Shown: positions 976-17,722 of the stretch, one piece after another
How positions within the stretch are numbered: the first letter of the stretch is position 1
Layout of the letters: each line of letters opens with the position of its first letter
IMG/VR virus record: IMGVR_UViG_3300020472_003601
Source of the DNA: an uncultured virus (IMG/VR IMGVR_UViG_3300020472_003601)
Lineage: Duplodnaviria > Heunggongvirae > Uroviricota > Caudoviricetes
DNA length: 20,000 nt
Strand: one strand, 5' to 3'
Translations under genes and position numbers: made by a program
Notes under the pieces: model-generated
The model's database searches: none
The model's input: the letters and a program-made list of their open reading frames with translations, nothing else
Told to the model about the DNA's origin: nothing

Positions 976-1572
976 TTATTTCTCCTCTCTCTTCATAGCT
1001 GTCTCCATACGGACCAGCTTACTATATTGTTCATTTCCATCAAAAACTTTGACCCCCGTAGACAAAACTGGTAATTCAAGTGTTTGTGAGAGCCCAAACA
1101 AAAATCGTTGAGGGTCTGTTACCATTGATTCATATGAAGTAAAATAAAAGGGCACTCCCGCCTCTTGAACATCATTTATAATGTTCCGATATCCTTGGGC
1201 TATGACCATATCAAAATTTCTGCGACGGCGTTGCTCGTGTCCTGATGCCACATTCTTTGGGTTCCAACAATGTGAATTGTAAAGACACCAATAATCTCTC
1301 ACCGGAATGAGAACGCGGATGTCCTGATAATTATGGAGCATTACGTCCTGTAAAATTTTCTTAGGGCTTGGCCACGGTCCTTCGCCTTGGTGCCCTGATG
1401 GGACACTGTATTTAAAAGCATATAATTCACTTCTTTCGGTGACAAGTTCGTGACCACAATTATGCTTTTTTCCGGTGGCGCCGAAGCCGTCAATTAATAA
1501 ATTTAACAAGGCTTTGGTTCCGGTATGCTCAGGTCCAAAGATGGCAATGGCTCGTCGGTTTAGTTCTTTCAT
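976..1572 (-). CDS. Sulfotransferase-fold (P-loop) protein
   Basis: IFGPEHTGTKAL resembles the 5'-PSB loop (GxxRSGT). VLIPVRDYWCLYNS resembles the 3'-PB motif (RDP...S). SYESMVTDPQRFL resembles the YEdLvxdP motif. Confidence 0.6.
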   Translation of the reverse strand: MKELNRRAIAIFGPEHTGTKALLNLLIDGFGATGKKHNCGHELVTERSELYAFKYSVPSGHQGEGPWPSPKKILQDVMLHNYQDIRVLIPVRDYWCLYNSHCWNPKNVASGHEQRRRRNFDMVIAQGYRNIINDVQEAGVPFYFTSYESMVTDPQRFLFGLSQTLELPVLSTGVKVFDGNEQYSKLVRMETAMKREEK

Positions 1573-2021
1573 TGGTATTTCTCCTTATAGTATTTTTTCC
1601 AATCTAGCGGATAATCAGTACAGATTCCCGCAATCTTCTGTTCGATATGAAATGGTTTCCCACATTCTACCACATAACTGTCTTTGATGTAAACTCCCGG
1701 ATAACACCAAATATTTTGTTTATTAGTTAAGGTCATCTCATCATTACGATGCCAAAACCACTGGAGGTCTGTTTTGATGGAGGTGATGTTTTCCACAGCT
1801 TCGTAATTCTTCAGATGCAACCACATGTTGGGAGCGAAGAATGTGCTTTCAACTTCGTATTTTGGAGCGTCGTGCCCCAAAAACCACTTATCATCCTTAA
1901 ACCAAACATCAACCTCCACACCAAAATGACTCAAAGCTTGTATAATGTAGTTTGGTTTGTTCTCCTCTTCGGGGCATGGTCCGCATAAGTTTCCCCTATG
2001 TGATACGATATTCATTCTCAT
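1569..2021 (-). CDS. Short glycerophosphodiester phosphodiesterase (GDPD/PLC-like) domain protein
   Basis: SHRGN...EEN, GVEVDVW, LGHD and a C-terminal GICTDY match GDPD-type motifs. At 150 aa it is short for the fold. Start may be 2015. Confidence 0.65.
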   Translation of the reverse strand: MRMNIVSHRGNLCGPCPEEENKPNYIIQALSHFGVEVDVWFKDDKWFLGHDAPKYEVESTFFAPNMWLHLKNYEAVENITSIKTDLQWFWHRNDEMTLTNKQNIWCYPGVYIKDSYVVECGKPFHIEQKIAGICTDYPLDWKKYYKEKYQ

Positions 2022-2650
2022 TCTGCCCTCCGTATAATATCAGCCATTAAATCATAGTTAACATCTTTCCAGCTTTTAATCTCATAGACAGAGGCGCCTG
2101 TTGCTCGGGCTGCTGCTAAACCCACTGCAGAGTCTTCAAAGATAATACACTCTTCTAAACCACAATCAATACGTGCTAAACTCATCAATGCGCGAATGTA
2201 AGGTTCAGGATGAGGTTTTGGGTTGACAACATCATTGTTGGTAACCAGCACATCAACATATTCCATAAGCCCTATGTGCTCAAGAAGCATCCGAGTCGAT
2301 TGACCATTCGCGTTTGTCACAACAGCAATCTTAATATCTTGTTCGGTCAAGTGCTGGAAGGCTTCTCTTTTGCAGAAATAGTGCTTAGGGTTTAATTCTA
2401 ACATAAGCTCATTGGCAATTTTCTTTTTATCTTCGTATATTGTTTCTACCTGATCCATATTAATGTAGCCCTTATCGCAAAACTTGATAAGCTTAGCTTT
2501 GGTGGTAATTGTAGAATGGACAATATCCAAATCACTAGGATGCCTAACATCGAACCCGTTGCGACCAAGGGCGCGGACGATTGAACGCGCCTGAATGTCT
2601 GTAGTGTCAACGAGAACGCCGTCAAAATCAAAGATGAAAGCCTTATACAT
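2018..2650 (-). CDS. HAD-superfamily phosphatase (beta-phosphoglucomutase/CbbY-like)
   Basis: Motif I FDFDGVLVDT, motif II VVTN, motif III KPHPEPY, motif IV IFEDSAVGLAAA. Confidence 0.9.
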   Translation of the reverse strand: MYKAFIFDFDGVLVDTTDIQARSIVRALGRNGFDVRHPSDLDIVHSTITTKAKLIKFCDKGYINMDQVETIYEDKKKIANELMLELNPKHYFCKREAFQHLTEQDIKIAVVTNANGQSTRMLLEHIGLMEYVDVLVTNNDVVNPKPHPEPYIRALMSLARIDCGLEECIIFEDSAVGLAAARATGASVYEIKSWKDVNYDLMADIIRRAE

Positions 2651-2651
2651 G

Positions 2652-3368
2652 CTATTCTCGTGGATGGTGTGTTAGATAATGATTCAGATCCTCGGGTGTT
2701 CCAAGACCCCACATTCTGTCGATGTGAAAGACCTTGACTTTCTGGTTGTCTTCGCATGCCTGATTATAAACTGGACAAACATAAAACTCATTATTCGTGC
2801 GAATGTCGCGCTCAATCATTTGCTCAGCATACTTGACATAATCAGAACCCTTGCGGAAGTAATATACTCCAGCGGTGGCGATGTTACTGATGGGATTCTT
2901 CTCTGCGACTTCTGTTACGAAGCCATCGTCGCCCAGCTTGGCAAAACTCCACTTGGGATGAGTTGCTTCAAAGGTGAGAATACCGCCATCAACCTCGTCG
3001 GCTACCATAGAATACATAAACTCGTTACTGTTCCACTCGAAAACCTGATCAGAGTTTGAGATGACCAAAGGCTCATCATTATTGATAAACTCCTTTGCCA
3101 ACAGAGTAGTACACGCGGCGCCCTCAGTAACTCCATCCACCTGTACGATAACACAATCCGGTGAGATGAGGTTTAATAATTGCTGCACATTATATTTCTC
3201 ATAATGAGACTTCTGCACAATGTAGATGTGACGAGCTTCGATGTTTAGATTCTCAATCACTAGTTGAATCATTGGCTTGCCATTAACATCAATCAGCGGC
3301 TTGGGAAATGTATACCCCGCCCTTTCAAATCGACTGCCGGCACCTGCCATTGGGATTAATACGTTCAT
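2652..3368 (-). CDS. Sugar-phosphate nucleotidyltransferase (GT-A fold, BcbE-like)
   Basis: IPMAGAGSRF...PKPLIDVNGKPMI signature, TEGAACT, NSDQ, VAEKNPIS, NNEFYVCPVYN and GLGTPEDL. Confidence 0.85.
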   Translation of the reverse strand: MNVLIPMAGAGSRFERAGYTFPKPLIDVNGKPMIQLVIENLNIEARHIYIVQKSHYEKYNVQQLLNLISPDCVIVQVDGVTEGAACTTLLAKEFINNDEPLVISNSDQVFEWNSNEFMYSMVADEVDGGILTFEATHPKWSFAKLGDDGFVTEVAEKNPISNIATAGVYYFRKGSDYVKYAEQMIERDIRTNNEFYVCPVYNQACEDNQKVKVFHIDRMWGLGTPEDLNHYLTHHPRE

Positions 3369-4029: not shown

Positions 4030-4848
4030 TTAATCGGCATAATATTCTCCGTCGGCTTCATAGGTGTACCAGTATCCAGAATTGTATTTTTCCCAATCTA
4101 GCTTAATGCGTGGTAGGGGCTGAAATAGTGAGTCCTTAATTGAGTCATAAAATTCCATTACCTTCGGACGATGTGCTGAATCATCCAGCAAGCAATTTCT
4201 CCAGTCTCCAACATGTTCAATAGCCTCTTCAAAAAATAGAGCGTAGTAATGCATACCAATATACATGGGAGAACGAATGTGCTCAGTAAAATAATTTGGA
4301 GGACAAATGGGGCCCGGATAGGGAGGCTCCGTACTAAGCGGCAAGGAAAACAACCTTAATAGGTCTTCTCTGTGTCCCATGTAAATGTGATCTTGGGGGT
4401 GGTAGGGGTAATTCCGATGATTTCCAATAACAAAAATCTTACTCTTTTGTTTTTCTCCGGAGTCTAGATATGATAGACTTTCTTGGTTCTTGTGTTCTAT
4501 AAAGAAGTCATAAATTTTATGAAAACTCTCATGATGAATCTTTTCATCGGATCGCACTTTAAAAACTACGTCTTGGGTTGTTCTCTTGAGTCCCTCTAAA
4601 GAAGATACAATTTGTAGATTTACATTACCGGGTCCAAAAGCGTCTGGTTTTTTGTTTCGAAGAAGTTCTATATTGTGTTGTTCTAAATCGCCCTGAAGAG
4701 TGGGGCCATTTACAAGACCCGCAAGTTTTGGATCGTCTTCCCATGTGGAAATAACCACTTTATCCACAAAATCTAATTTCTGATAATGAAACGCGGTTGG
4801 TATTGTGCTGTTCCATAGTCCTCCCTGTATGATGATGTCTATTTTCAT
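4030..4848 (-). CDS. WavE lipopolysaccharide-synthesis family protein
   Basis: IIIQG...VVISTWED...NVNLQIVSSLEGLK...KVRSD...HPQDHIYMG follows the WavE-family motif pattern. Confidence 0.75.
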   Translation of the reverse strand: MKIDIIIQGGLWNSTIPTAFHYQKLDFVDKVVISTWEDDPKLAGLVNGPTLQGDLEQHNIELLRNKKPDAFGPGNVNLQIVSSLEGLKRTTQDVVFKVRSDEKIHHESFHKIYDFFIEHKNQESLSYLDSGEKQKSKIFVIGNHRNYPYHPQDHIYMGHREDLLRLFSLPLSTEPPYPGPICPPNYFTEHIRSPMYIGMHYYALFFEEAIEHVGDWRNCLLDDSAHRPKVMEFYDSIKDSLFQPLPRIKLDWEKYNSGYWYTYEADGEYYAD

Positions 4849-4854
4849 GATTAT

Positions 4855-5223
4855 TTAATCTCCTTTTATGACCCTGTGGCTATCGCTGTCAAAGTGTTGA
4901 GTGGAAAACTCGAACAACTCTGAATCTTCTAAAGCAACCATCTGGTGTCGTAATCCGCGGTAAACATGGAAATTATCTCCGGGATTCAATATCAATTGTT
5001 TAGCTTTGGTAATATCGTCTTCTTCGGAATAGTATAACATCATTTTACCGGATTGCAAATAAAAAACTTCATCTTTTAATATATGATAATGCCAAGAGCA
5101 CCGTTTGCTTCTATTAAAAAATAATAATTTTCCACAATATTCTTCATTGTTAACAATCCAGCGCTCCCAGCCCCAGCCTTTATCTACGTGCTTCATCGGA
5201 AGTTTGTGCGTTTTCTTACTCAT
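4855..5223 (-). CDS. Cupin-fold sugar isomerase-like protein (D-lyxose ketol-isomerase / Man6P isomerase-like)
   Basis: YCGKLL...SWHYHILKDEVFYLQSG (HxH...E metal motif) and PGDNFHVYRGLRHQM (cupin motif 2). Confidence 0.75.
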   Translation of the reverse strand: MSKKTHKLPMKHVDKGWGWERWIVNNEEYCGKLLFFNRSKRCSWHYHILKDEVFYLQSGKMMLYYSEEDDITKAKQLILNPGDNFHVYRGLRHQMVALEDSELFEFSTQHFDSDSHRVIKGD

Positions 5224-5558
5224 TCAAAACTCGCCTCCATTGTAGTAAAAAAATTGACGTCCCTCATTCCTTTGTCGTCGATATAAAGATCTCCGGATGG
5301 CTTGCCTAAGAATAATTCATGAAATTTAACACCCCAATTTAACAATTGAGTACGCGTAAGTTCATAAAAAGCTTCATGAGCATATGTAAAAGAGTTGTTA
5401 GATCTTCCCATTCCTCTAGCTGTGTAGAGTGTTATTTTGTTTCCTTCTTTATATAATCTATTGACAACATCTATTCTCTCTTGAATTGGTTGAGAATTCT
5501 CATAATCGCCGTCGATAGTTTCGCAAAGAGTCCCATCTATGTCAAACACATAGTTCAT
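5220..5558 (-). CDS. Minimal capless HAD phosphatase (BcbF/EcbF-like)
   Basis: FDIDGTLC, ITLYTARG and GKPSGDLYIDDK in a 112-aa protein. Confidence 0.8.
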   Translation of the reverse strand: MNYVFDIDGTLCETIDGDYENSQPIQERIDVVNRLYKEGNKITLYTARGMGRSNNSFTYAHEAFYELTRTQLLNWGVKFHELFLGKPSGDLYIDDKGMRDVNFFTTMEASFE

Positions 5559-6324
5559 CTATATCCTCCTTGGTCAATACATAGGTTCCAAATTTTGTCA
5601 CTGAGTAGGATGCACACTTATTGGCAAACTCTATGGCGCGTGCCATGGAGCCGTGTTTCATGTATTTGTAGACTAAGGAAGCCATAAACACATCGCCTGC
5701 GCCACACACATCGAATACTTCAACTTTATTGGTGCGATAAATTTTATTTTTATATACACAACCGCCATCACCCATCGTCACAATAAGTTCGTAATTTTCA
5801 GGATAGTTCGTTATCTTTTCATATTCTAATTCATTTATCTTCAAAATAGCCCCCTCAAAGCATGACAAGTCGCGCTTCTTTGAATCCACAAAAAGAGGAA
5901 TATTTTGGCGCGCGCATAACTGAGAGATTTCGGTGCACACTTCGGGGAGCAGAAATCCCTTATCATAATCGCTAATTACAAGAACATCTACATCTTCAAA
6001 ATCGTGCTTTTGGAATTTATATGGCTCAATGTCTTGAATTTCGTTTCTGTCTACGCGTAACATATGCTGCTTTGAGCGTTCGTCTATGTAGCGATGTTTT
6101 TCTATATTATTTCTGTCGGTGATGTGATCTGTAGTTATTTCAAAGGCTCGTAGATTCAGAAATACATTTAGCGCCATTCCGGGGCGGATCTCGGTTTCAG
6201 TCTCCTGAAAAACTGGAACAGGTGCCTCTGGACTCAGACGACTACATTCGCCATAGTGGTATACATCCACGCACGCATCACCCATTAGTAATACTTTCAA
6301 TGATTTTTGTTGTTGAGTATTCAT
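5542..6324 (-). CDS. hldA: D-glycero-D-manno-heptose-7-phosphate kinase (HldA / HldE domain I, PfkB family)
   Basis: MGDACVD, RLSPEAPVPV, SDYDKGFL and the PfkB anion-hole motif DVCGAGD. Adjacent to hldC and hldD. Confidence 0.85.
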   Translation of the reverse strand: MNTQQQKSLKVLLMGDACVDVYHYGECSRLSPEAPVPVFQETETEIRPGMALNVFLNLRAFEITTDHITDRNNIEKHRYIDERSKQHMLRVDRNEIQDIEPYKFQKHDFEDVDVLVISDYDKGFLLPEVCTEISQLCARQNIPLFVDSKKRDLSCFEGAILKINELEYEKITNYPENYELIVTMGDGGCVYKNKIYRTNKVEVFDVCGAGDVFMASLVYKYMKHGSMARAIEFANKCASYSVTKFGTYVLTKEDIDELCV

Positions 6325-6676
6325 CTATTCTATCAAAATATCCTAGGATTTTAGCATGTTCAGAGCCGATTACGCGTTTTCCTTGCCAATCAGATCCGAC
6401 AATCATATAATCTGGGGCATATCCTTGGATCGCTGTTTCTAATTCTTCGTCACTATCAAATATTACCACATCATTGACCCACTTTAAATTAAGCAAGAAC
6501 TCTTTTCTTATTATTTCTGAATTAATCGGGCGGTCGGCGCCTTTAGATTGTCTTACTCGCCTGTCAGAATCAATGCCCACCATGACATGACTCCCCATCA
6601 TAGCGCAACGCTTAAGCAGGCTTAAATGCCCAAGGTGCAATATATCAAAACATCCGTTAGTAAAGACTTTAATCAT
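6278..6676 (-). CDS. hldC: Heptose-1-phosphate nucleotidyltransferase (HldC / HldE domain II)
   Basis: VFTNGCFDILHLGH (HIGH-like), GIDSD...KGADRPIN, GSDW and a C-terminal YSTT motif. Confidence 0.88.
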   Translation of the reverse strand: MIKVFTNGCFDILHLGHLSLLKRCAMMGSHVMVGIDSDRRVRQSKGADRPINSEIIRKEFLLNLKWVNDVVIFDSDEELETAIQGYAPDYMIVGSDWQGKRVIGSEHAKILGYFDRIDEYSTTKIIESITNG

Positions 6677-7542
6677 TTATTTTTCCTATTAGCATACACG
6701 CTCTCAATTCCTTCTTCTATTGAAGTTCGACTTTGGCTGATGCCGGCAGCTGTAATTTTACTATTATCACTACATGTATACTTTTGGTATTTACCCGCTA
6801 GATGATTGGGAAACGGTATTTTGGTAATTTTAGCATTTGTAATCCTCGACACATGTTGGGCTACCTCCATGAAAGATGTAGCTATTCCCGAACCTACATT
6901 GTATATCCCGGGTTTCTCGCTTTTAGCAATTGCAAGAGTGATATCAACAATATCTCGCACATAAACAAAATCACGATAAAAGTCTTCGCTACCTTCGAAC
7001 ACCCTTATCACTCCATTTTGTTTAGATTGTTCAAAAAATTTGTGCACTGGGCTAGCCATATCTTGCTTGTGTTCTTCATTTTCTCCGTACACATTGAAAT
7101 ATCTTAAACCATATACCTTTGCTGTAGGGTTGTCTTTTATTTTTTGGGCAACAAACTGATCGAAAGATGTCTTACTAATTGCATAATAATTTAAAGGAGT
7201 TAGGTGAGTATCTTCTCTGAAGCCGTGTTCACCCAAACCATAAACCGAGGCTGAAGAGGCATAGACTATGGGCACATTGTTAGCAATACAGTATTCTAGC
7301 AACTGAGAACTAAACAAAATATTATGCATAGATATCTGCGATGTATTTGTCTCAGTCGTTGACGAGATAGCCCCCAAGTGATATATCACAGATGGTCGAT
7401 TCGTCTTTAAAAGAGTCAGCAGTGCGTCTGGGCGTAGTACATTTGTCCCGCGAACATCACAGCACACCACTTCTTCGTCAGTGTTGATAGCCTTAAGCAA
7501 ATGAGAACCTATGAAGCCACTTGTTCCGGTAGTTACAATCAT
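6673..7542 (-). CDS. hldD: ADP-L-glycero-D-manno-heptose 6-epimerase
   Basis: TGTSGFIG, HLGAISSTTE, YASSASVYG, PLNYYAISK, LRYFNVYG-x-x-EEHKQDMAS, RDFVYV and YQKYT are typical RfaD/GmhD motifs. Confidence 0.88.
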   Translation of the reverse strand: MIVTTGTSGFIGSHLLKAINTDEEVVCCDVRGTNVLRPDALLTLLKTNRPSVIYHLGAISSTTETNTSQISMHNILFSSQLLEYCIANNVPIVYASSASVYGLGEHGFREDTHLTPLNYYAISKTSFDQFVAQKIKDNPTAKVYGLRYFNVYGENEEHKQDMASPVHKFFEQSKQNGVIRVFEGSEDFYRDFVYVRDIVDITLAIAKSEKPGIYNVGSGIATSFMEVAQHVSRITNAKITKIPFPNHLAGKYQKYTCSDNSKITAAGISQSRTSIEEGIESVYANRKNK

Positions 7543-7543
7543 T

Positions 7544-8284
7544 TTATAAACTTAACCACCTTTTGTCCCATGTGGGGGATTCAGTATAAGATACGCCCGG
7601 AGGTAACCCTTCTCTTCGAAGAAGAAATTTTGGAGTGTTCGGAAAATGTTCTTGGCAGACATTGTCGATAAAACAATGTACTGAGCTTTCTGTGCAATAT
7701 ATTTCTTTCGCCTCCTTTATGATCAAAAACCAGTCGGGGATCTGATAATCTTCTACGATATCCATCGTTACCACCGATCGGTTTTTAATTTCTGGCATTG
7801 GTGCCACATGACCTTTTGAACTCTTTACGTGGCAAAAAATGTAATCTCCCAAATCTCCTACTATTTTGTTATACAATTCTTTCTCTCTATATTCGACTCT
7901 TTTCCAATCTAATTTGTACTTCAAAGAAAAGGGGAGATTTGCCATTCTATATTTAGATCGTGCGGACGCAGATTTTTCATTAGCGCGCTGATCTGTGGCG
8001 TGTGGTCCTCGATCAGCCAAATTGAGAACTATATCGTATTTTTTTAAACTATACAATTTTAATATCTTATCCACATCTGATTTAAGCCAATCTGAGTGTA
8101 TTTGAACCTCCGGGATTGTCTCATGGTTGATATACTCGAAATATCTGAATAAAGGTGAGTATTCTTCTCTAGATGGCCATGTTATGTCGTATCCATTGTC
8201 ATAGTAATATTTGGCAATAGGTGCGCACTCAATAATATCTCCGAAAGCGCCCGGCTGAATCACTAATGCTTGTTTTCTTTTCAT
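7544..8284 (-). CDS. GT9-like (heptosyltransferase-like) glycosyltransferase
   Basis: N-terminal LVIQPGAFGDIIECAPIAK (GDxxxxxP), YDIVLNL and a C-terminal CTESSVHC resembling the GT9 DSG motif. Directly upstream of hldD. Confidence 0.55.
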   Translation of the reverse strand: MKRKQALVIQPGAFGDIIECAPIAKYYYDNGYDITWPSREEYSPLFRYFEYINHETIPEVQIHSDWLKSDVDKILKLYSLKKYDIVLNLADRGPHATDQRANEKSASARSKYRMANLPFSLKYKLDWKRVEYREKELYNKIVGDLGDYIFCHVKSSKGHVAPMPEIKNRSVVTMDIVEDYQIPDWFLIIKEAKEIYCTESSVHCFIDNVCQEHFPNTPKFLLRREGLPPGVSYTESPTWDKRWLSL

Positions 8285-9162
8285 TAGATTTTTCCTTCAG
8301 TCTGCATCTTATCTATAAAGTTGAAAATGTTATATTTCGTATAATAAAGATTCTTGGCTTCTAATATATGCGGCAACCTACCCTCATAATCATCGTTATT
8401 GTAAACTTCTTTAATTTGAGAAACTGTTTGTGCGATATCACCGCTAAAATCAATTTCTATAAAAGACTTAGGCGGATAGATTTGGTGCACGTTGGTACAC
8501 CCATAATATATTGGCGTTGTATTGCAGACAATCAAATCAAAGAATTTTTCCGTTAAATAATTATCATAGCTTGAGTTTTCTATAGCAATAGAATATTCAT
8601 ACGGCACAATTGCGTCCGATTTATTGTAGGGACTGCCCTTATATCTCGGATCTGGGAGATTCCAGTTTCTTCCGTAGAAATGAATATCTAAATCGGTTTC
8701 CAAAAGCGCACTAAATAATTCGTGTCTTTTTATGTAATTATGTTTATGTCCGTAGTTTGAAGATATAATGGACATACGATGTGTTTTTTTGAATTCATTA
8801 TTTAAGTAATAGTTGTGATAGTCTGTGGATTGAGTAAACATGAATAATGGATGTTCTATCACATTATCTCCCTCAAACATATTTTTATCCTGCGCTACTA
8901 CAAATTTACAATATTTATCTAAATCTCTTTGCCAATTCGTTGACCACTCTGGCTCCAACAGAAATCCAATTGTTTTTTCTTTATCTTTAAAAAAATGTCT
9001 ATCTTCAGGTCGAATGCCACCTAAAACAATCAGATATTCATAATCATCTTTGGATAATTGAAACTTTTCATGGTCTGGGAAATTGCGGAAAGTACGCATG
9101 CCAACATTAGGGTCATATATCTCATGCCAATTGGCGATTATCCAGATTTTTGTTTTAGACAT
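8284..9162 (-). CDS. GT10 (alpha-1,3/1,4-fucosyltransferase-like) glycosyltransferase
   Basis: YEYSIAIENSSYDNYLTEKFFD...TPIYYG is the GT10 motif. ATG at 9162 overlaps the upstream TGA (TGATG). Confidence 0.85.
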   Translation of the reverse strand: MSKTKIWIIANWHEIYDPNVGMRTFRNFPDHEKFQLSKDDYEYLIVLGGIRPEDRHFFKDKEKTIGFLLEPEWSTNWQRDLDKYCKFVVAQDKNMFEGDNVIEHPLFMFTQSTDYHNYYLNNEFKKTHRMSIISSNYGHKHNYIKRHELFSALLETDLDIHFYGRNWNLPDPRYKGSPYNKSDAIVPYEYSIAIENSSYDNYLTEKFFDLIVCNTTPIYYGCTNVHQIYPPKSFIEIDFSGDIAQTVSQIKEVYNNDDYEGRLPHILEAKNLYYTKYNIFNFIDKMQTEGKI

Positions 9163-9899
9163 CAATAGCCCTCCCGCAATGCCGATTTGAGACCCTCAAG
9201 CTCTTTATTATGTACCGCTGATACACTTCCGTGCTCAGTGATCGCTTTACCCCAATAAACATCTAAATCGAGTAACCTAAAGGCTATATTGAAATACCAG
9301 TCTATGGGCCAGTCGACTTTAAATGCATCCATATGCATGCAGAGTCTTTTCACTGCTGAAGCACGGTATAACACAGTGCACATTCCGTTCGTTAGAGTTC
9401 CGTTTTTCAAAACACTAAGGGGGGCGCTTGATGGATCCAATGGCCATGCTGTTGGATCTTTTTTGATGAATATATCCCTGTTATCTCCGATTCTCATAGC
9501 AGCCTCACCCATAAACAAACAATCAAAAGATATATTCTCTTCATCACATTTTTGTAAAATACGCGTGACATACTCAAAAGGATCTTCCTTAAATATGACA
9601 TCATCCTCTAAAACTAGAATGTACTCATCATCTTGCATCTTGCTTATCTTTCGTAAAACATCTTTATATTTTAAACAAAGAGATATTTCGCCCGGGCTGG
9701 GAGAACGCGAGGTATTCTGTTTAAATTTTTCTATATTCAGAGCATCTCTGATATCAAATTCATCCATTATCTCTTGGTCATGACTCTCTTCAAATTCTAC
9801 ATCTACGCGGTCAAGGTTCCATTTTTGTACCTCTGACATCATGTGCTTCTTTCTTTCGAGAAGTTTGGTATAGTGGACGACGAAAATCTTAGATATCAC
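9162..9899 (-). CDS. GT25 family glycosyltransferase
   Basis: IFVVH...ERKKHM, SPGEISLCL, LVLEDD and PIDW. An in-frame GTG at 9899 with GGAG upstream is preferred over the ORF-track start at 9944. Confidence 0.75.
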   Translation of the reverse strand: MISKIFVVHYTKLLERKKHMMSEVQKWNLDRVDVEFEESHDQEIMDEFDIRDALNIEKFKQNTSRSPSPGEISLCLKYKDVLRKISKMQDDEYILVLEDDVIFKEDPFEYVTRILQKCDEENISFDCLFMGEAAMRIGDNRDIFIKKDPTAWPLDPSSAPLSVLKNGTLTNGMCTVLYRASAVKRLCMHMDAFKVDWPIDWYFNIAFRLLDLDVYWGKAITEHGSVSAVHNKELEGLKSALREGY

Positions 9900-10587
9900 T
9901 TTTTCTCCCAAAAACCCAAGTAACCACTGCGTATCGGGGATCATTTAAGCCCGGATTAATCATGGTATTATAGCTCGGCCATTCTAAGTCTTCAAATAGT
10001 TTGGTCGTATATTCTTTGTTTCCCCATGCGCCAATAGACATAATTTCAAAACCAGCGGCTTCAGCGACACAACCAAGACCGGTCGGTGTAAATCCAGAAT
10101 AGTGGTGATAAGGGGTCATGTGAGGGATGTTTATGACAGGTAAATTGGCATAAAAAATGCCTCCGGGGCGCAGATGATCGTGAATTTTCTTTAAGCACTT
10201 AATTGGATCATATAAATGTTCTAAAGTCTGATTAAGCATACAAAAATCATAATCAGACTGTGGAAGGTTTAGGTTGTGTAAGTCGTTATTAACGGGATCG
10301 CTCTCATAGTGTATAACGTGCTTGTCAGAATACTCAAGATATTCAAATTCTGGATCGCTGTCTCCGTTGAAGCAAAGAACCTTTTCAAAACTTAAATTAT
10401 TTTGTTGTAGAAATTCTTCAAACTCTAAAAGGGCAATAACACGAGGAAAATCTTTATTTTCCCACTTCCAATTCTTGATGTTCTTATGTAAAGGTAGTGG
10501 AACGTACTTATAGGCATCCATCGTATTGCTTAGTATGTGGTCTCGATAGATGCGCATGACATCAGAATTATTAAGATAATCTTTCAT
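9889..10587 (-). CDS. Class I SAM-dependent methyltransferase-like protein
   Basis: YDFCMLNQTLEHLYDP...IHDHLRPGG is typical of Methyltransf_11-like proteins. Motif I is degenerate (VLCFNGD). Confidence 0.7.
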   Translation of the reverse strand: MKDYLNNSDVMRIYRDHILSNTMDAYKYVPLPLHKNIKNWKWENKDFPRVIALLEFEEFLQQNNLSFEKVLCFNGDSDPEFEYLEYSDKHVIHYESDPVNNDLHNLNLPQSDYDFCMLNQTLEHLYDPIKCLKKIHDHLRPGGIFYANLPVINIPHMTPYHHYSGFTPTGLGCVAEAAGFEIMSIGAWGNKEYTTKLFEDLEWPSYNTMINPGLNDPRYAVVTWVFGRKSDI

Positions 10588-11371
10588 TTATGTACTTCTC
10601 CCACCAACTAATTCTCATCATGTCTAGGTCGAACAGAGAATCTTCTACTTTTTCATAATATTCGTTTAATTTATTATAACTTAATTCAGACCAATCGTCA
10701 ATAAAATAAATTGGTAAATCACAAAAATCATTCATGTGAGTGCTTCTTTTCACAATAGGAATGGTCTTGAGATATAGAGCTTCCCAAGTTCGATGACAAT
10801 CAACTCCATTGCCACGGGGGGATATAACAAATTTGGAGGATGCCAGATCAAAATAAAACTTCTGCAAAGATAGTTTCTCGGTACATGTTATCCATGATTG
10901 TGTGGATAACAAATCCCAAACCACGGAGCGCTCGCGAGGATATGTTTGAATATTAAAATTCATATAGGCTAGCGTATTTTTCTGTATCCCATAAGAGGCA
11001 TATTTATCAATAAGATCGGCTTTCTGGAGAGCGCCGTTGACTTCGGAAGAATAAGCTCCGAAGCGGGCAGAGGCGTGGGTGCGTAGTTGCATATTTTCCA
11101 ACCCTATAGGAATAGATTGAATGTTTTCTGCATCTATGTCTTTGTTTTGTGCTAACCATAAATTACACCTAGGTCCGAAAGGGTAAACATTTTTGTCTAT
11201 ATGGTAGTCGCTATTATGAGTGATAAAGACATCTTCGACTTTATCTTTGAATTCTGCGATATAATCAGTCTTGCAAAACGTGGCGTCGGTTCTTTCGCAT
11301 ATATCAATAAACCGATTGCCAGTGATATATTCTTCAATACCAATTGTATGTTCTAAAAATTTTTCTTTCAC
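10571..11371 (-). CDS. Exostosin/GT47-like glycosyltransferase
   Basis: SKFVISPRGNGVDCHRTWEALYLKTIPIV matches the exostosin-like C-terminal motif. Confidence 0.75.
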   Translation of the reverse strand: MKEKFLEHTIGIEEYITGNRFIDICERTDATFCKTDYIAEFKDKVEDVFITHNSDYHIDKNVYPFGPRCNLWLAQNKDIDAENIQSIPIGLENMQLRTHASARFGAYSSEVNGALQKADLIDKYASYGIQKNTLAYMNFNIQTYPRERSVVWDLLSTQSWITCTEKLSLQKFYFDLASSKFVISPRGNGVDCHRTWEALYLKTIPIVKRSTHMNDFCDLPIYFIDDWSELSYNKLNEYYEKVEDSLFDLDMMRISWWEKYINERLS

Positions 11372-12114
11372 ATCATCAACGTATCGTATATCTTATCAAT
11401 CATTTCTGAATAATCTTTATATGGTCTCGGCAGGTGAATATCTACAAATCCATTATTCATTAGGGCTAGCCAATCTGCTCTCAAAATTCCTTCACGATCT
11501 AAGCGTCGATTGGATATAAATTCATTATTTGGTTTTATATTAATTTTATGTTTTCCAATTTGACTAAACAGGAATACTTCATCACTAAACCAAAGGTTGT
11601 TTCCCTGCAGGTGTTGTGGTAACCTAAAATTAAATTTGTCGGTGTCAAAGTCTAAATTAATAATCTTATCTAAAAATCCCTGCCATGTGGTGTTATCAAA
11701 CAGCTTTTTGTACAAGGAGCCATATCCACAATAGTAGCAAATCGGCAATTGTCCGAATTCTCGACGTTCTGGATTTAGATGAAAAAATGTATTCTCATCA
11801 CACGCGGCTTCTATTTTTGCTTTATCAAAAAAGACCGTAGAGACTGGAAACATGTCTATGTCTGACAATAAACATATTTCATCTTCAAACATTTGAGTAA
11901 AATATATTCTGGCTAACTGTGCTTGTAGGTACACAGGATAATCATCCAGTTTCTTGATGTAAAGAATTCCATCCTCAAAGGTTTCGGTCTCCTTTGCTTC
12001 ATTCACAAAAATCAACTTTGGTTCAATTCCAATTCTTTTCTGCCAAAGATCACGGACGAATGGCCAGAAATCAGAATAATAGGGATTATCATCACATGAT
12101 AACATAACATTCAT
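11368..12114 (-). CDS. Putative GT-A glycosyltransferase (unassigned family)
   Basis: Hydrophobic strand followed by DxD (ICLLSDIDMFP), WFSDE, a late DIHLPRP His motif, and cluster context. Confidence 0.5.
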   Translation of the reverse strand: MNVMLSCDDNPYYSDFWPFVRDLWQKRIGIEPKLIFVNEAKETETFEDGILYIKKLDDYPVYLQAQLARIYFTQMFEDEICLLSDIDMFPVSTVFFDKAKIEAACDENTFFHLNPERREFGQLPICYYCGYGSLYKKLFDNTTWQGFLDKIINLDFDTDKFNFRLPQHLQGNNLWFSDEVFLFSQIGKHKINIKPNNEFISNRRLDREGILRADWLALMNNGFVDIHLPRPYKDYSEMIDKIYDTLMM

Positions 12115-17004: not shown

Positions 17005-17033
17005 ATTATAACAACGAGAGATGACGTTGTCAA
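17005..17033 (-). promoter_or_regulatory. Perfect-consensus sigma70 promoter with extended -10
   Basis: Minus strand: TTGACA (17033-17028), 17-nt spacer ending TGT, TATAAT (17010-17005), then SD GAGG and ATG at 16991. Confidence 0.9.
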
Positions 17034-17722
17034 GTATTTTTCGGATCTTGAAGCATAATTATTTTCTTATATAATTGGGGGCTTACAGTTTTTAGAAAAT
17101 TATGATTATTGTTCATAAAAAAATCAGCGAATCCAGTCGCGAAATATTCCCTCAGAGATGTGGCGGCATATGGGTTGATAAAGAGTCCCTGCATCAAATT
17201 GACCAACTTATCGTACCCGATATCTTCGTATAAGAACATGTCGAATTCTTGATTATATTCAACATTCATAAAGAAGGATTCGGGTGCCCTGAAGTTATTA
17301 GACCACAATATATCGTGTAAGTGCTTTCTTTTGCGCAAAAATTCATCTTTAATTTTGTTGTCACCATATAGCAAATATCCATTAGGTGTTTCTAACGAGT
17401 GCGATATTTCATGTATGATGTTTTCCAGCATACTATCATCATCGGTTTGAATATGTGAAAGGAAAATTGTACCTCCATCATAAAAGGCAGTCAAATCTCT
17501 TTCTTCAAATTCATCAAACCATCCAACAATAATCATCTCTATTTCAGATAATAAATGAGGAGGAAGGATATCCTCGACATTAGAGATTGTCTTTTCGACA
17601 TCTATCTCTTTAGGAGACATTGGCTCCTTGAAATATACATGTATGCCCGATGGAGTATAAAAATCAGCTGTCTGATTCTGGCGAGCTTTCTGTTTCTCTT
17701 GCAAATGTTTTATGAGCATCAT
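17030..17722 (-). CDS. Hypothetical protein with zincin-like metallopeptidase motif
   Basis: IIHEISH (HExxH, 17399-17413) and downstream YAATSLREYFATGF, resembling the third-ligand helix of gluzincin/ATLF-like peptidases. Confidence 0.6.
   Translation of the reverse strand: MMLIKHLQEKQKARQNQTADFYTPSGIHVYFKEPMSPKEIDVEKTISNVEDILPPHLLSEIEMIIVGWFDEFEERDLTAFYDGGTIFLSHIQTDDDSMLENIIHEISHSLETPNGYLLYGDNKIKDEFLRKRKHLHDILWSNNFRAPESFFMNVEYNQEFDMFLYEDIGYDKLVNLMQGLFINPYAATSLREYFATGFADFFMNNNHNFLKTVSPQLYKKIIMLQDPKNT

Follow-up and report, generated by a model that had tools for sequence, protein, structure and literature searches.

Bacteria make nucleotide-activated heptose by the canonical ADP-L-glycero-beta-D-manno-heptose pathway (ADP, adenosine diphosphate), which employs GmhA, either HldE or the pair HldA and HldC, GmhB and HldD. 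GmhA is, to our knowledge, the sole known enzyme class through which heptose synthesis is entered. Heptose enzymes also occur in viruses according to Tang et al. 2024, as presented in two commentaries whose passages on this work have the phosphatase absent from viruses and eukaryotes (PMC11573728, PMC11461863); in cyanophages such genes have been listed, in the part of the survey that treats them, by annotation alone (PMC7378029). The locus considered here is a run of five genes in a 20,000-nucleotide stretch of DNA (the window) from an uncultured virus, IMG/VR record IMGVR_UViG_3300020472_003601. The window is the final 20 kb of a 72,605-base record with an estimated completeness of 39%, and genes for baseplate wedge, primase, RuvC, SbcCD, PhoH and exonuclease on this contig identify it as that of a large tailed phage. 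We consider it likely that the five overlapping genes encode a self-contained phage route to activated heptose, in which a cupin is predicted to stand in for GmhA and a very small phosphatase of the HAD family (mini-HAD) for GmhB. The genes, in the order of their transcription, are the following.

6673-7542, minus strand: hldD-like gene, 289 residues; nucleoside diphosphate (NDP)-heptose 6-epimerase, an extended SDR protein with the catalytic motif YAISK at 120.
6278-6676, minus strand: hldC-like gene, 132 residues; heptose-1-phosphate nucleotidyltransferase with the C-terminal end RIDEYSTT, without the STTR5 arginine.
5542-6324, minus strand: hldA-like gene, 260 residues; PfkB heptose-7-phosphate kinase in a shortened viral form, with RLSPEAPVP and GAGD.
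5220-5558, minus strand: mini-HAD gene, 112 residues; capless BcbF-like phosphatase of the 'GMGR + insert' subtype.
4855-5223, minus strand: cupin gene, 122 residues; metal-binding type resembling D-lyxose/L-ribose isomerases.

The first-pass annotation of the window had placed five contiguous genes with overlapping start and stop codons between 4855 and 7542. All five open reading frames do lie there; the start/stop overlaps are found at two of the four junctions, as ATGA overlaps of 4 nucleotides between hldD and hldC and between HAD and cupin, the hldC/hldA and hldA/HAD pairs overlapping by 47 and 17 nucleotides. The same annotation had seen no SIS-fold GmhA or canonical GmhB in the window, and curated and local profiles (TIGR00441, TIGR00213) detected neither in the entire 72,605-base contig, complete to 39%. 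With the canonical pathway the module shares genes of HldA, HldC and HldD type, in which the characteristic motifs are kept, and, as proposed, the same five chemistries, the bacterial versions having in addition a GT9 partner. It differs in being encoded by a phage, in lacking the SIS-fold GmhA and the zinc-loop GmhB, in having the 122-residue cupin and the 112-residue capless HAD, and in the kinase being cut to 260 residues.

The assignment of the three hld products rests on profiles and motifs. The HldD-like protein scores 264 bits on TIGR02197, 10 under the cut-off of 274.6, the next family being galE at 77 bits. The HldA-like protein has TIGR02198 as its best match (158 bits, cut-off 345, E 2.5e-46) and carries motifs of RxSPEAPVP type and GAGD, and the HldC-like protein (phrog_7878) matches TIGR02199 with 102 bits (cut-off 181.5, E 2e-29) and has the motifs HLGH and YSTT. 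Its kind, a viral nucleotidyltransferase of the HENase type, and the kinase are common to the module and to the enzymes of Tang et al. 2024, in so far as the commentaries describe them; in what they relate no cupin isomerase is named, and the HldC of the window differs by having no STTR5 arginine. The STTR5 motif of promiscuous heptose nucleotidyltransferases is defined as (F/L)xxGRSTT (PMC11573728). The HldC of the window reads RIDEYSTT, and an arginine before STT is found in none of the 48 family members (from a total of 53) in which the motif could be read, so that a promiscuous transferase of STTR5 type is ruled out by the motif definition.

The cupin belongs to a family of at least 3,920 homologues of near-equal length and matches Cupin_2 with E 4e-6. 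In 21 diverse members, in which residue conservation was judged, K15, K32, H45, H47, K50, E52, H93, E105, S107, T108, H110, D114 and R117 are invariant in all. Of these, K32, H45, H47, K50 and E52 align with K62, H75, H77, K86 and E88 of the Thermofilum D-lyxose isomerase (phmmer, E 0.11, weak by itself; the numbering is offset by a 24-residue tag), which the mechanistic part of a published study describes as metal and sugar ligands of an enzyme acting through a cis-enediol (PMC8378251); H93, E105 and D114 correspond to its H143, E156 and D163 by spacing only. The structural model of the cupin (mean predicted local distance difference test score 89.6) has the same isomerase as its top Foldseek match (E 4.5e-9, template modelling score 0.73), with CapF and KdgF close behind at ranks 3-10. 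The link to D-lyxose isomerases drawn in the first-pass annotation is borne out by the catalytic residues, through alignment and published ligand roles. Common to the cupin and the D-lyxose/L-ribose isomerases (PF07385; PDB 7NZO, 2Y0O, 3KMH, 5AVP) are the cupin fold in general and the C-x-K, H-x-H and K-x-E motifs with their metal and substrate residues. The PF07385 enzymes have 170-270 residues and are about 21-27% identical to the cupin, which falls under the Pfam cut-off, has a phosphorylated heptulose as its proposed substrate and possesses the extra invariant residues K15, S107, T108, H110 and R117. Weak PF07385 matches occur in 21 of 21 family members (best E 9e-5). From these residues the cupin is predicted to work like an isomerase of the lyxose/mannose type, being by score a non-member of PF07385. 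The label of cysteine dioxygenase attached to phrog_7851 has the shared fold as its only support in fold searches and was rejected.

In the mini-HAD the motifs DIDGT, TAR, K86 and DDK are present, with D6, D8, T46, K86 and D95 invariant in 38 sequences, as expected of a capless HAD, and the zinc-loop cysteines of GmhB are missing. Its nearest solved relatives are PDB 9IQW (E 2e-14) and 1XPJ. It shares with the EcbF/BcbF phosphatases (TIGR01689; both structures included) the capless fold, the DxD/TAR/K/DDK pattern and a similar length, and differs from them in scoring 38 bits where the TIGR01689 cut-off is 162 (E 1e-9) and in having the GMGR insert. The view of 9IQW as a phage deoxynucleoside monophosphate phosphatase is a guess without support and was set aside. 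Among 75 distinct copies, the subtype with GMGR and an 8-residue insert, to which the HAD of the window belongs, was found in 40 hldA/hldC, 0 NeuB and 7 other contexts, against 6, 16 and 6 for the short subtype (p 3e-10, uncorrected); the extra arginine of the GMGR subtype could hold the C1 phosphate of the bisphosphate.

These assignments allow a pathway to be proposed. The cupin would convert host sedoheptulose-7-phosphate to D-glycero-D-manno-heptose-7-phosphate at a Mn/Zn site made of H45, H47, E52 and H93, by cis-enediol chemistry as in D-lyxose isomerase. Sedoheptulose has the C3-C5 configuration of fructose, and therefore an isomerase of the fructose/mannose type would yield manno-heptose directly. 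By homology, HldA would perform the kinase step at C1; the mini-HAD may then take the 7-phosphate off heptose-1,7-bisphosphate, HldC would transfer the nucleotidyl group, probably giving the ADP form because hldD is present, and HldD would epimerise C6. The activated heptose may be passed to the neighbouring glycosyltransferases for glycosylation of the virion or of the host surface. The module is likely a variant of the ADP-heptose pathway with a probably new isomerase class.

Among the closest described relatives of the module are the T4-GC 304-308 clusters of the cyanophages P-SSM2, S-SSM7, S-CAM3 and P-TIM68. A tblastn search with the cupin matched 35 of the 50,697 phage records of GenBank; most of the 35 are duplicates that reduce to some dozen cyanophages. 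All five genes are present in the complete genomes of these four phages (of seven records examined) in three gene orders, gmhA and gmhB being absent, and the recurrence of the same genes in three orders means that their association is not due to chance. Their cupins are 61-66% identical to ours; the clusters differ in gene order, in phage lineage and in having the HAD and the cupin mislabelled. The heptose module was therefore present, though mislabelled, in cyanophage records of GenBank: the mini-HAD is called 'phosphoheptose isomerase' in GenBank (T4-GC 306) and in PHROG 1238, an assignment ruled out by its HAD motifs and the lack of a SIS match, and the cupin (PHROG 7851) is called cysteine dioxygenase or nucleotidyltransferase. 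In P-TIM68 a gene with a transketolase domain immediately precedes hldA; S-SM2 has a HAD-cupin pair with hldA about 7 kb off, and in Bellamy and SynMITS9220M01 the cupin is flanked by two genes of the guanosine diphosphate (GDP) route, one for an HddA-like kinase and one for an HddC-like transferase. The 31 GenBank phage records with an HldA match all fall within the 35 cupin records, which include none of the 12 records with a true GmhA. A gmhA match was found in 19 of 151 genomes of the Prochlorococcus family, and heptose is given as absent from cyanobacterial lipopolysaccharide in the section of a published account that deals with it (PMC4515613); supply of the heptose by the host is therefore unlikely for the cyanophage carriers.

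To examine the mutual exclusion of cupin and gmhA proposed in the first-pass annotation, viral loci were collected around the cupin (the best 80 of 598, with up to 10 kb per side) and around gmhA (83 in all, 3 having been added to the best 80 of 505); the two sets were picked on different genes and therefore do not form an unbiased table. The 80 cupin loci contain the HAD in 63 cases, NeuB in 28 and hldA+hldC in 41, with the HAD in 40 of these 41, and canonical gmhA and gmhB were found in none of the 80. After identical cupins were dropped, hldA+hldC remained in 37 of 67 loci, 36 of them with the HAD. Conversely, hldA+hldC occur in 7 of the 83 gmhA loci, four of the seven having canonical gmhB and none a cupin or mini-HAD, which bears out the proposed exclusion. 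The mini-HAD is likewise missing wherever canonical GmhB is present, in these four viral gmhA loci and in five bacterial operons described below. Among the best 120 of 586 longer cupin homologues, the cupin is fused to the mini-HAD in 49, to HldC in 18 and to HldA in 3 (70 of 120), the other 50 having other partners and none a SIS domain. In a further set of 50 whole cupin records (6 from cultured phages and 44 from IMG/VR, the longest distinct ones there; 12 complete), gmhB was found in none and a weak gmhA match in 4, and the 12 complete ones contained neither gmhA nor gmhB. A search of 10 complete cupin records with general SIS models gave no match, the first-look filter being one that may overlook divergent SIS proteins.

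An exchange of cupin and gmhA is seen in NeuB clusters. Locus L061 has the order CMP-synthetase (CMP, cytidine monophosphate), aminotransferase-4, TIM barrel, SDR, cupin, neuB, HAD (6155-11528), and L175 (4789-10045) has the same order with gmhA (179 bits) where L061 has the cupin; L173 and L198 share with L175 the core SDR-gmhA-neuB-HAD. The SDR and NeuB proteins of L175, L173 and L198 are 62-68% identical to their L061 counterparts, and the gmhA homologues in this slot score 179-186 bits on TIGR00441. This exchange in homologous clusters points to a ulosonic acid pathway in phages that is fed by heptose and whose product may have ten carbons. In a cupin tree (FastTree, about 110 columns, weakly resolved) the copies that accompany hldA are mixed with those that accompany NeuB, which is consistent with one activity in both; a division of the cupins into subfamilies by pathway was not seen, at the weak resolution of the tree. 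In its portion on ten-carbon ulosonic acids, the SugarBase preprint gives their origin as unknown and mentions neither GmhA nor cupins.

Other arrangements were met with among these loci. A divergent SIS family (L087-L090, L126, L004, L071) has as its frequent partners, adjacent or in fusion, another small HAD and a gene resembling CMP-synthetase. In L064, L066 and L093 (about 4200-8000) an RpiB::cytidylyltransferase fusion is accompanied by a PfkB kinase, a class II aldolase, a divergent cupin, a transaldolase and a mini-HAD; in L064 and L066 this cassette stands before a second hldC-hldA-cupin set, and a similar one in G096 has a cupin-HAD fusion.

Bacterial operons supply a different line of evidence. 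The genome collection yielded 25 cupin loci, many of which resemble mis-binned viral contigs. Five loci of Patescibacteria type have the order GT9-cupin-hldA-hldC::gmhB-hldD, with the cupin where gmhA belongs, relatives having the order gmhA-hldA-hldC; in one of them (L111) GmhB and HldD exceed their cut-offs. Because canonical GmhB, HldD and GT9 are all present, the product of these five operons must be heptose, the isomerase alone being missing. No true gmhA was found in their genomes, which are incomplete, and a gmhA concealed under a shadow reading frame was looked for in the operons and not found. Among 351 genomes of the same class, HldA was matched at 1e-30 in 18, of which 14 with E of 1e-50 or below were retained and 4 with weak fused forms, none with a cupin, were dropped. 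In the 14, gmhA was present in 6, the cupin in 6 (4 core and 2 distant), both in none and neither in 2 (Fisher p 0.0097, relatedness uncorrected and the seed G064 included).

A number of observations weigh against the proposed pathway. The scores of HldA and HldC are below their equivalog cut-offs, and hldD is accessory among the relatives, being present in 5 of the 41 hldA+hldC cupin loci; of the five-gene module of the first-pass annotation, the full set recurs in the four cyanophages and the conserved core comprises four genes. The fold match of the cupin to D-lyxose isomerase is not unique: in VIA-align CapF comes first (Z 14.8), and KdgF and other cupins also stand above the lyxose isomerase, which is at rank 31 (Z 12.5, root-mean-square deviation 2.8, 116 aligned residues), yet has the top identity (27%) among 50 rows. 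The PF07385 score, 15.5 bits, is under the gathering cut-off of 20.8, and the short HAD subtype does occur in hldA/hldC contexts, in the six cases given above. NeuB is present and hldA/hldC absent in 22 of the 80 cupin loci, and in 17 more no member of either group lies within 10 kb. Divergent SIS proteins (35-64 bits on TIGR00441) lie 1.5-7.5 kb from the cupin in 5 of 80 loci and in SynMITS9220M01, where the protein scores 47 bits (cut-off 209) and is found 6 kb away beside a second GHMP kinase. A divergent cupin is present 5 kb off in 2 of the 83 gmhA loci (L143, L155), and one bacterial genome (G178) has a mid-distant cupin together with true gmhA and no HldA; the expectation that cupin homologues would not routinely accompany gmhA is borne out in hldA+hldC loci, these few cases of coexistence notwithstanding. 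Genomes G058 and G157 have the cupin alone, away from hldA. The exclusion in HldA genomes drops to p 0.085 with core cupins only, and relatedness is uncorrected. The first-pass annotation had called the route possibly viral; the module occurs in large phages, and the cupin is found in bacteria too, and in HddA/HddC and NeuB clusters.

Some of these observations would be accommodated by a general fructose-6-phosphate/mannose-6-phosphate isomerase belonging to a sugar-supply kit, with hldA/hldC making NDP-hexose or obtaining heptose-7-phosphate elsewhere. The interleaving of hldA and NeuB cupins fits such a role, as does the position of the nearest match (L001, 91% identical) in a NeuB locus. 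A Kdn route would require mannose-6-phosphate; weak MannoseP_isomer matches in 4 of 21 cupin members, the T. kodakarensis phosphomannose isomerase in the VIA top ten and the existence of stand-alone copies point in the same direction. The same NeuB slot, however, is occupied by true gmhA homologues, the five bacterial operons must make heptose with the isomerase alone missing, and the cupin is fused directly to HldC and HldA, so we regard this explanation as unlikely. Somewhat less probable still is a cupin acting later or aside, as an RmlC/CapF-like NDP-heptose epimerase or a KdgF-like helper in ring opening or mutarotation, the heptose-7-phosphate coming from the host or from genes on the missing 61% of the genome. 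Complete carriers and most cyanobacterial hosts lack gmhA, the exchange with gmhA is one for one, and the equivalents of lyxose-isomerase K62 and K86 are invariant, all of which argue for an isomerase despite the high ranks of CapF and KdgF in VIA and Foldseek, the divergent SIS proteins of some cupin genomes and the incompleteness of our contig.

The cupin may also be an isomerase while the mini-HAD is a general sugar-phosphate phosphatase, promiscuous host HADs taking the 7-phosphate. Its retention in nearly all hldA+hldC viral loci, its absence exactly where canonical GmhB occurs, the tracking of hldA/hldC by the arginine-bearing subtype and the 49 HAD-cupin fusions make this the least probable of the three alternatives, although the occurrence of the HAD family in NeuB clusters, gmhA ones included (4 of 83), and the missing zinc-loop cysteines would agree with it. 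That the two extra genes stand in for the missing GmhA and GmhB chemistries, as the first-pass annotation had supposed, is accordingly the reading that we prefer, supported by the exclusion and by the catalytic residues, the activities being predicted. A broader proposal appears to us evenly balanced: the cupin family would be a second, convergent class of sedoheptulose-7-phosphate isomerase, widespread among large phages and also found in Patescibacteria, exchangeable with GmhA in ADP-heptose, GDP-heptose and NeuB routes (in the last, heptose-7-phosphate and phosphoenolpyruvate would give a ten-carbon ulosonic acid), and with the mini-HAD it would complete a host-independent viral route to NDP-heptose, an ALPK1 agonist.

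The heptose module lies inside a minus-strand glycosylation island that takes up about 16 kb of the window and contains GT2, GT4, GT10, GT25 and GT47-like proteins, a methyltransferase, epimerases and WavE. Its immediate neighbours are the following.

7544-8284, minus strand: candidate GT9-like heptosyltransferase, 246 residues, 1 nucleotide upstream of hldD; a lead only.
4030-4848, minus strand: WavE-family protein (PF07507, E 4e-12), directly downstream of the cupin and part of the glycosylation island.

The 7544-8284 protein has an N-terminal QPGAFGD...AP motif like that of GT9 heptosyltransferases, its ESM Atlas neighbours are GT9-like, and HHalign relates it to GT9 at 40% (E 3e-4) over the N-terminal 79 columns only; no Pfam (PF01075 included) or PDB match was found. 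Other members of its family were found in 6 further loci that have hldA/hldC with the cupin, and 3 gmhA loci contain the family as well. It is a candidate viral heptosyltransferase and perhaps a recipient of the activated heptose. Elsewhere in the window, a nucleotidyltransferase, a beta-PGM-like HAD and a 150-residue phosphodiesterase-like protein (1569-3368, minus strand) form a trio that constitutes a second sugar-activation unit and is met with again in S-SM2 and in a number of related loci. The 230-residue protein at 17030-17722 (minus strand) has a HEISH zincin-like motif with weak, sub-threshold Peptidase_M90 and ATLF Pfam matches and homologues in 7 loci. On G000:C1, positions 9727-47586, huge minus-strand reading frames of structural appearance (1073-3503 residues), with no PHROG match, surround two baseplate wedge genes.

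Our literature searches, which covered Tang et al. 2024 through its commentaries, found no description of a heptose route with a cupin or mini-HAD, and names for ten-carbon ulosonates gave no literature match. The reading offered here would put right an existing misannotation in cyanophage genomes and in PHROG 1238, and P-SSM2 and S-CAM3 are cultured carriers of the module. Counts of heptose producers that rely on homology to GmhA and GmhB would overlook the cupin/mini-HAD route. If the proposed functions are true, two proteins of 12-14 kDa close both the isomerase and the phosphatase gap, and this would account for heptose synthesis by phages whose hosts are mostly without gmhA.

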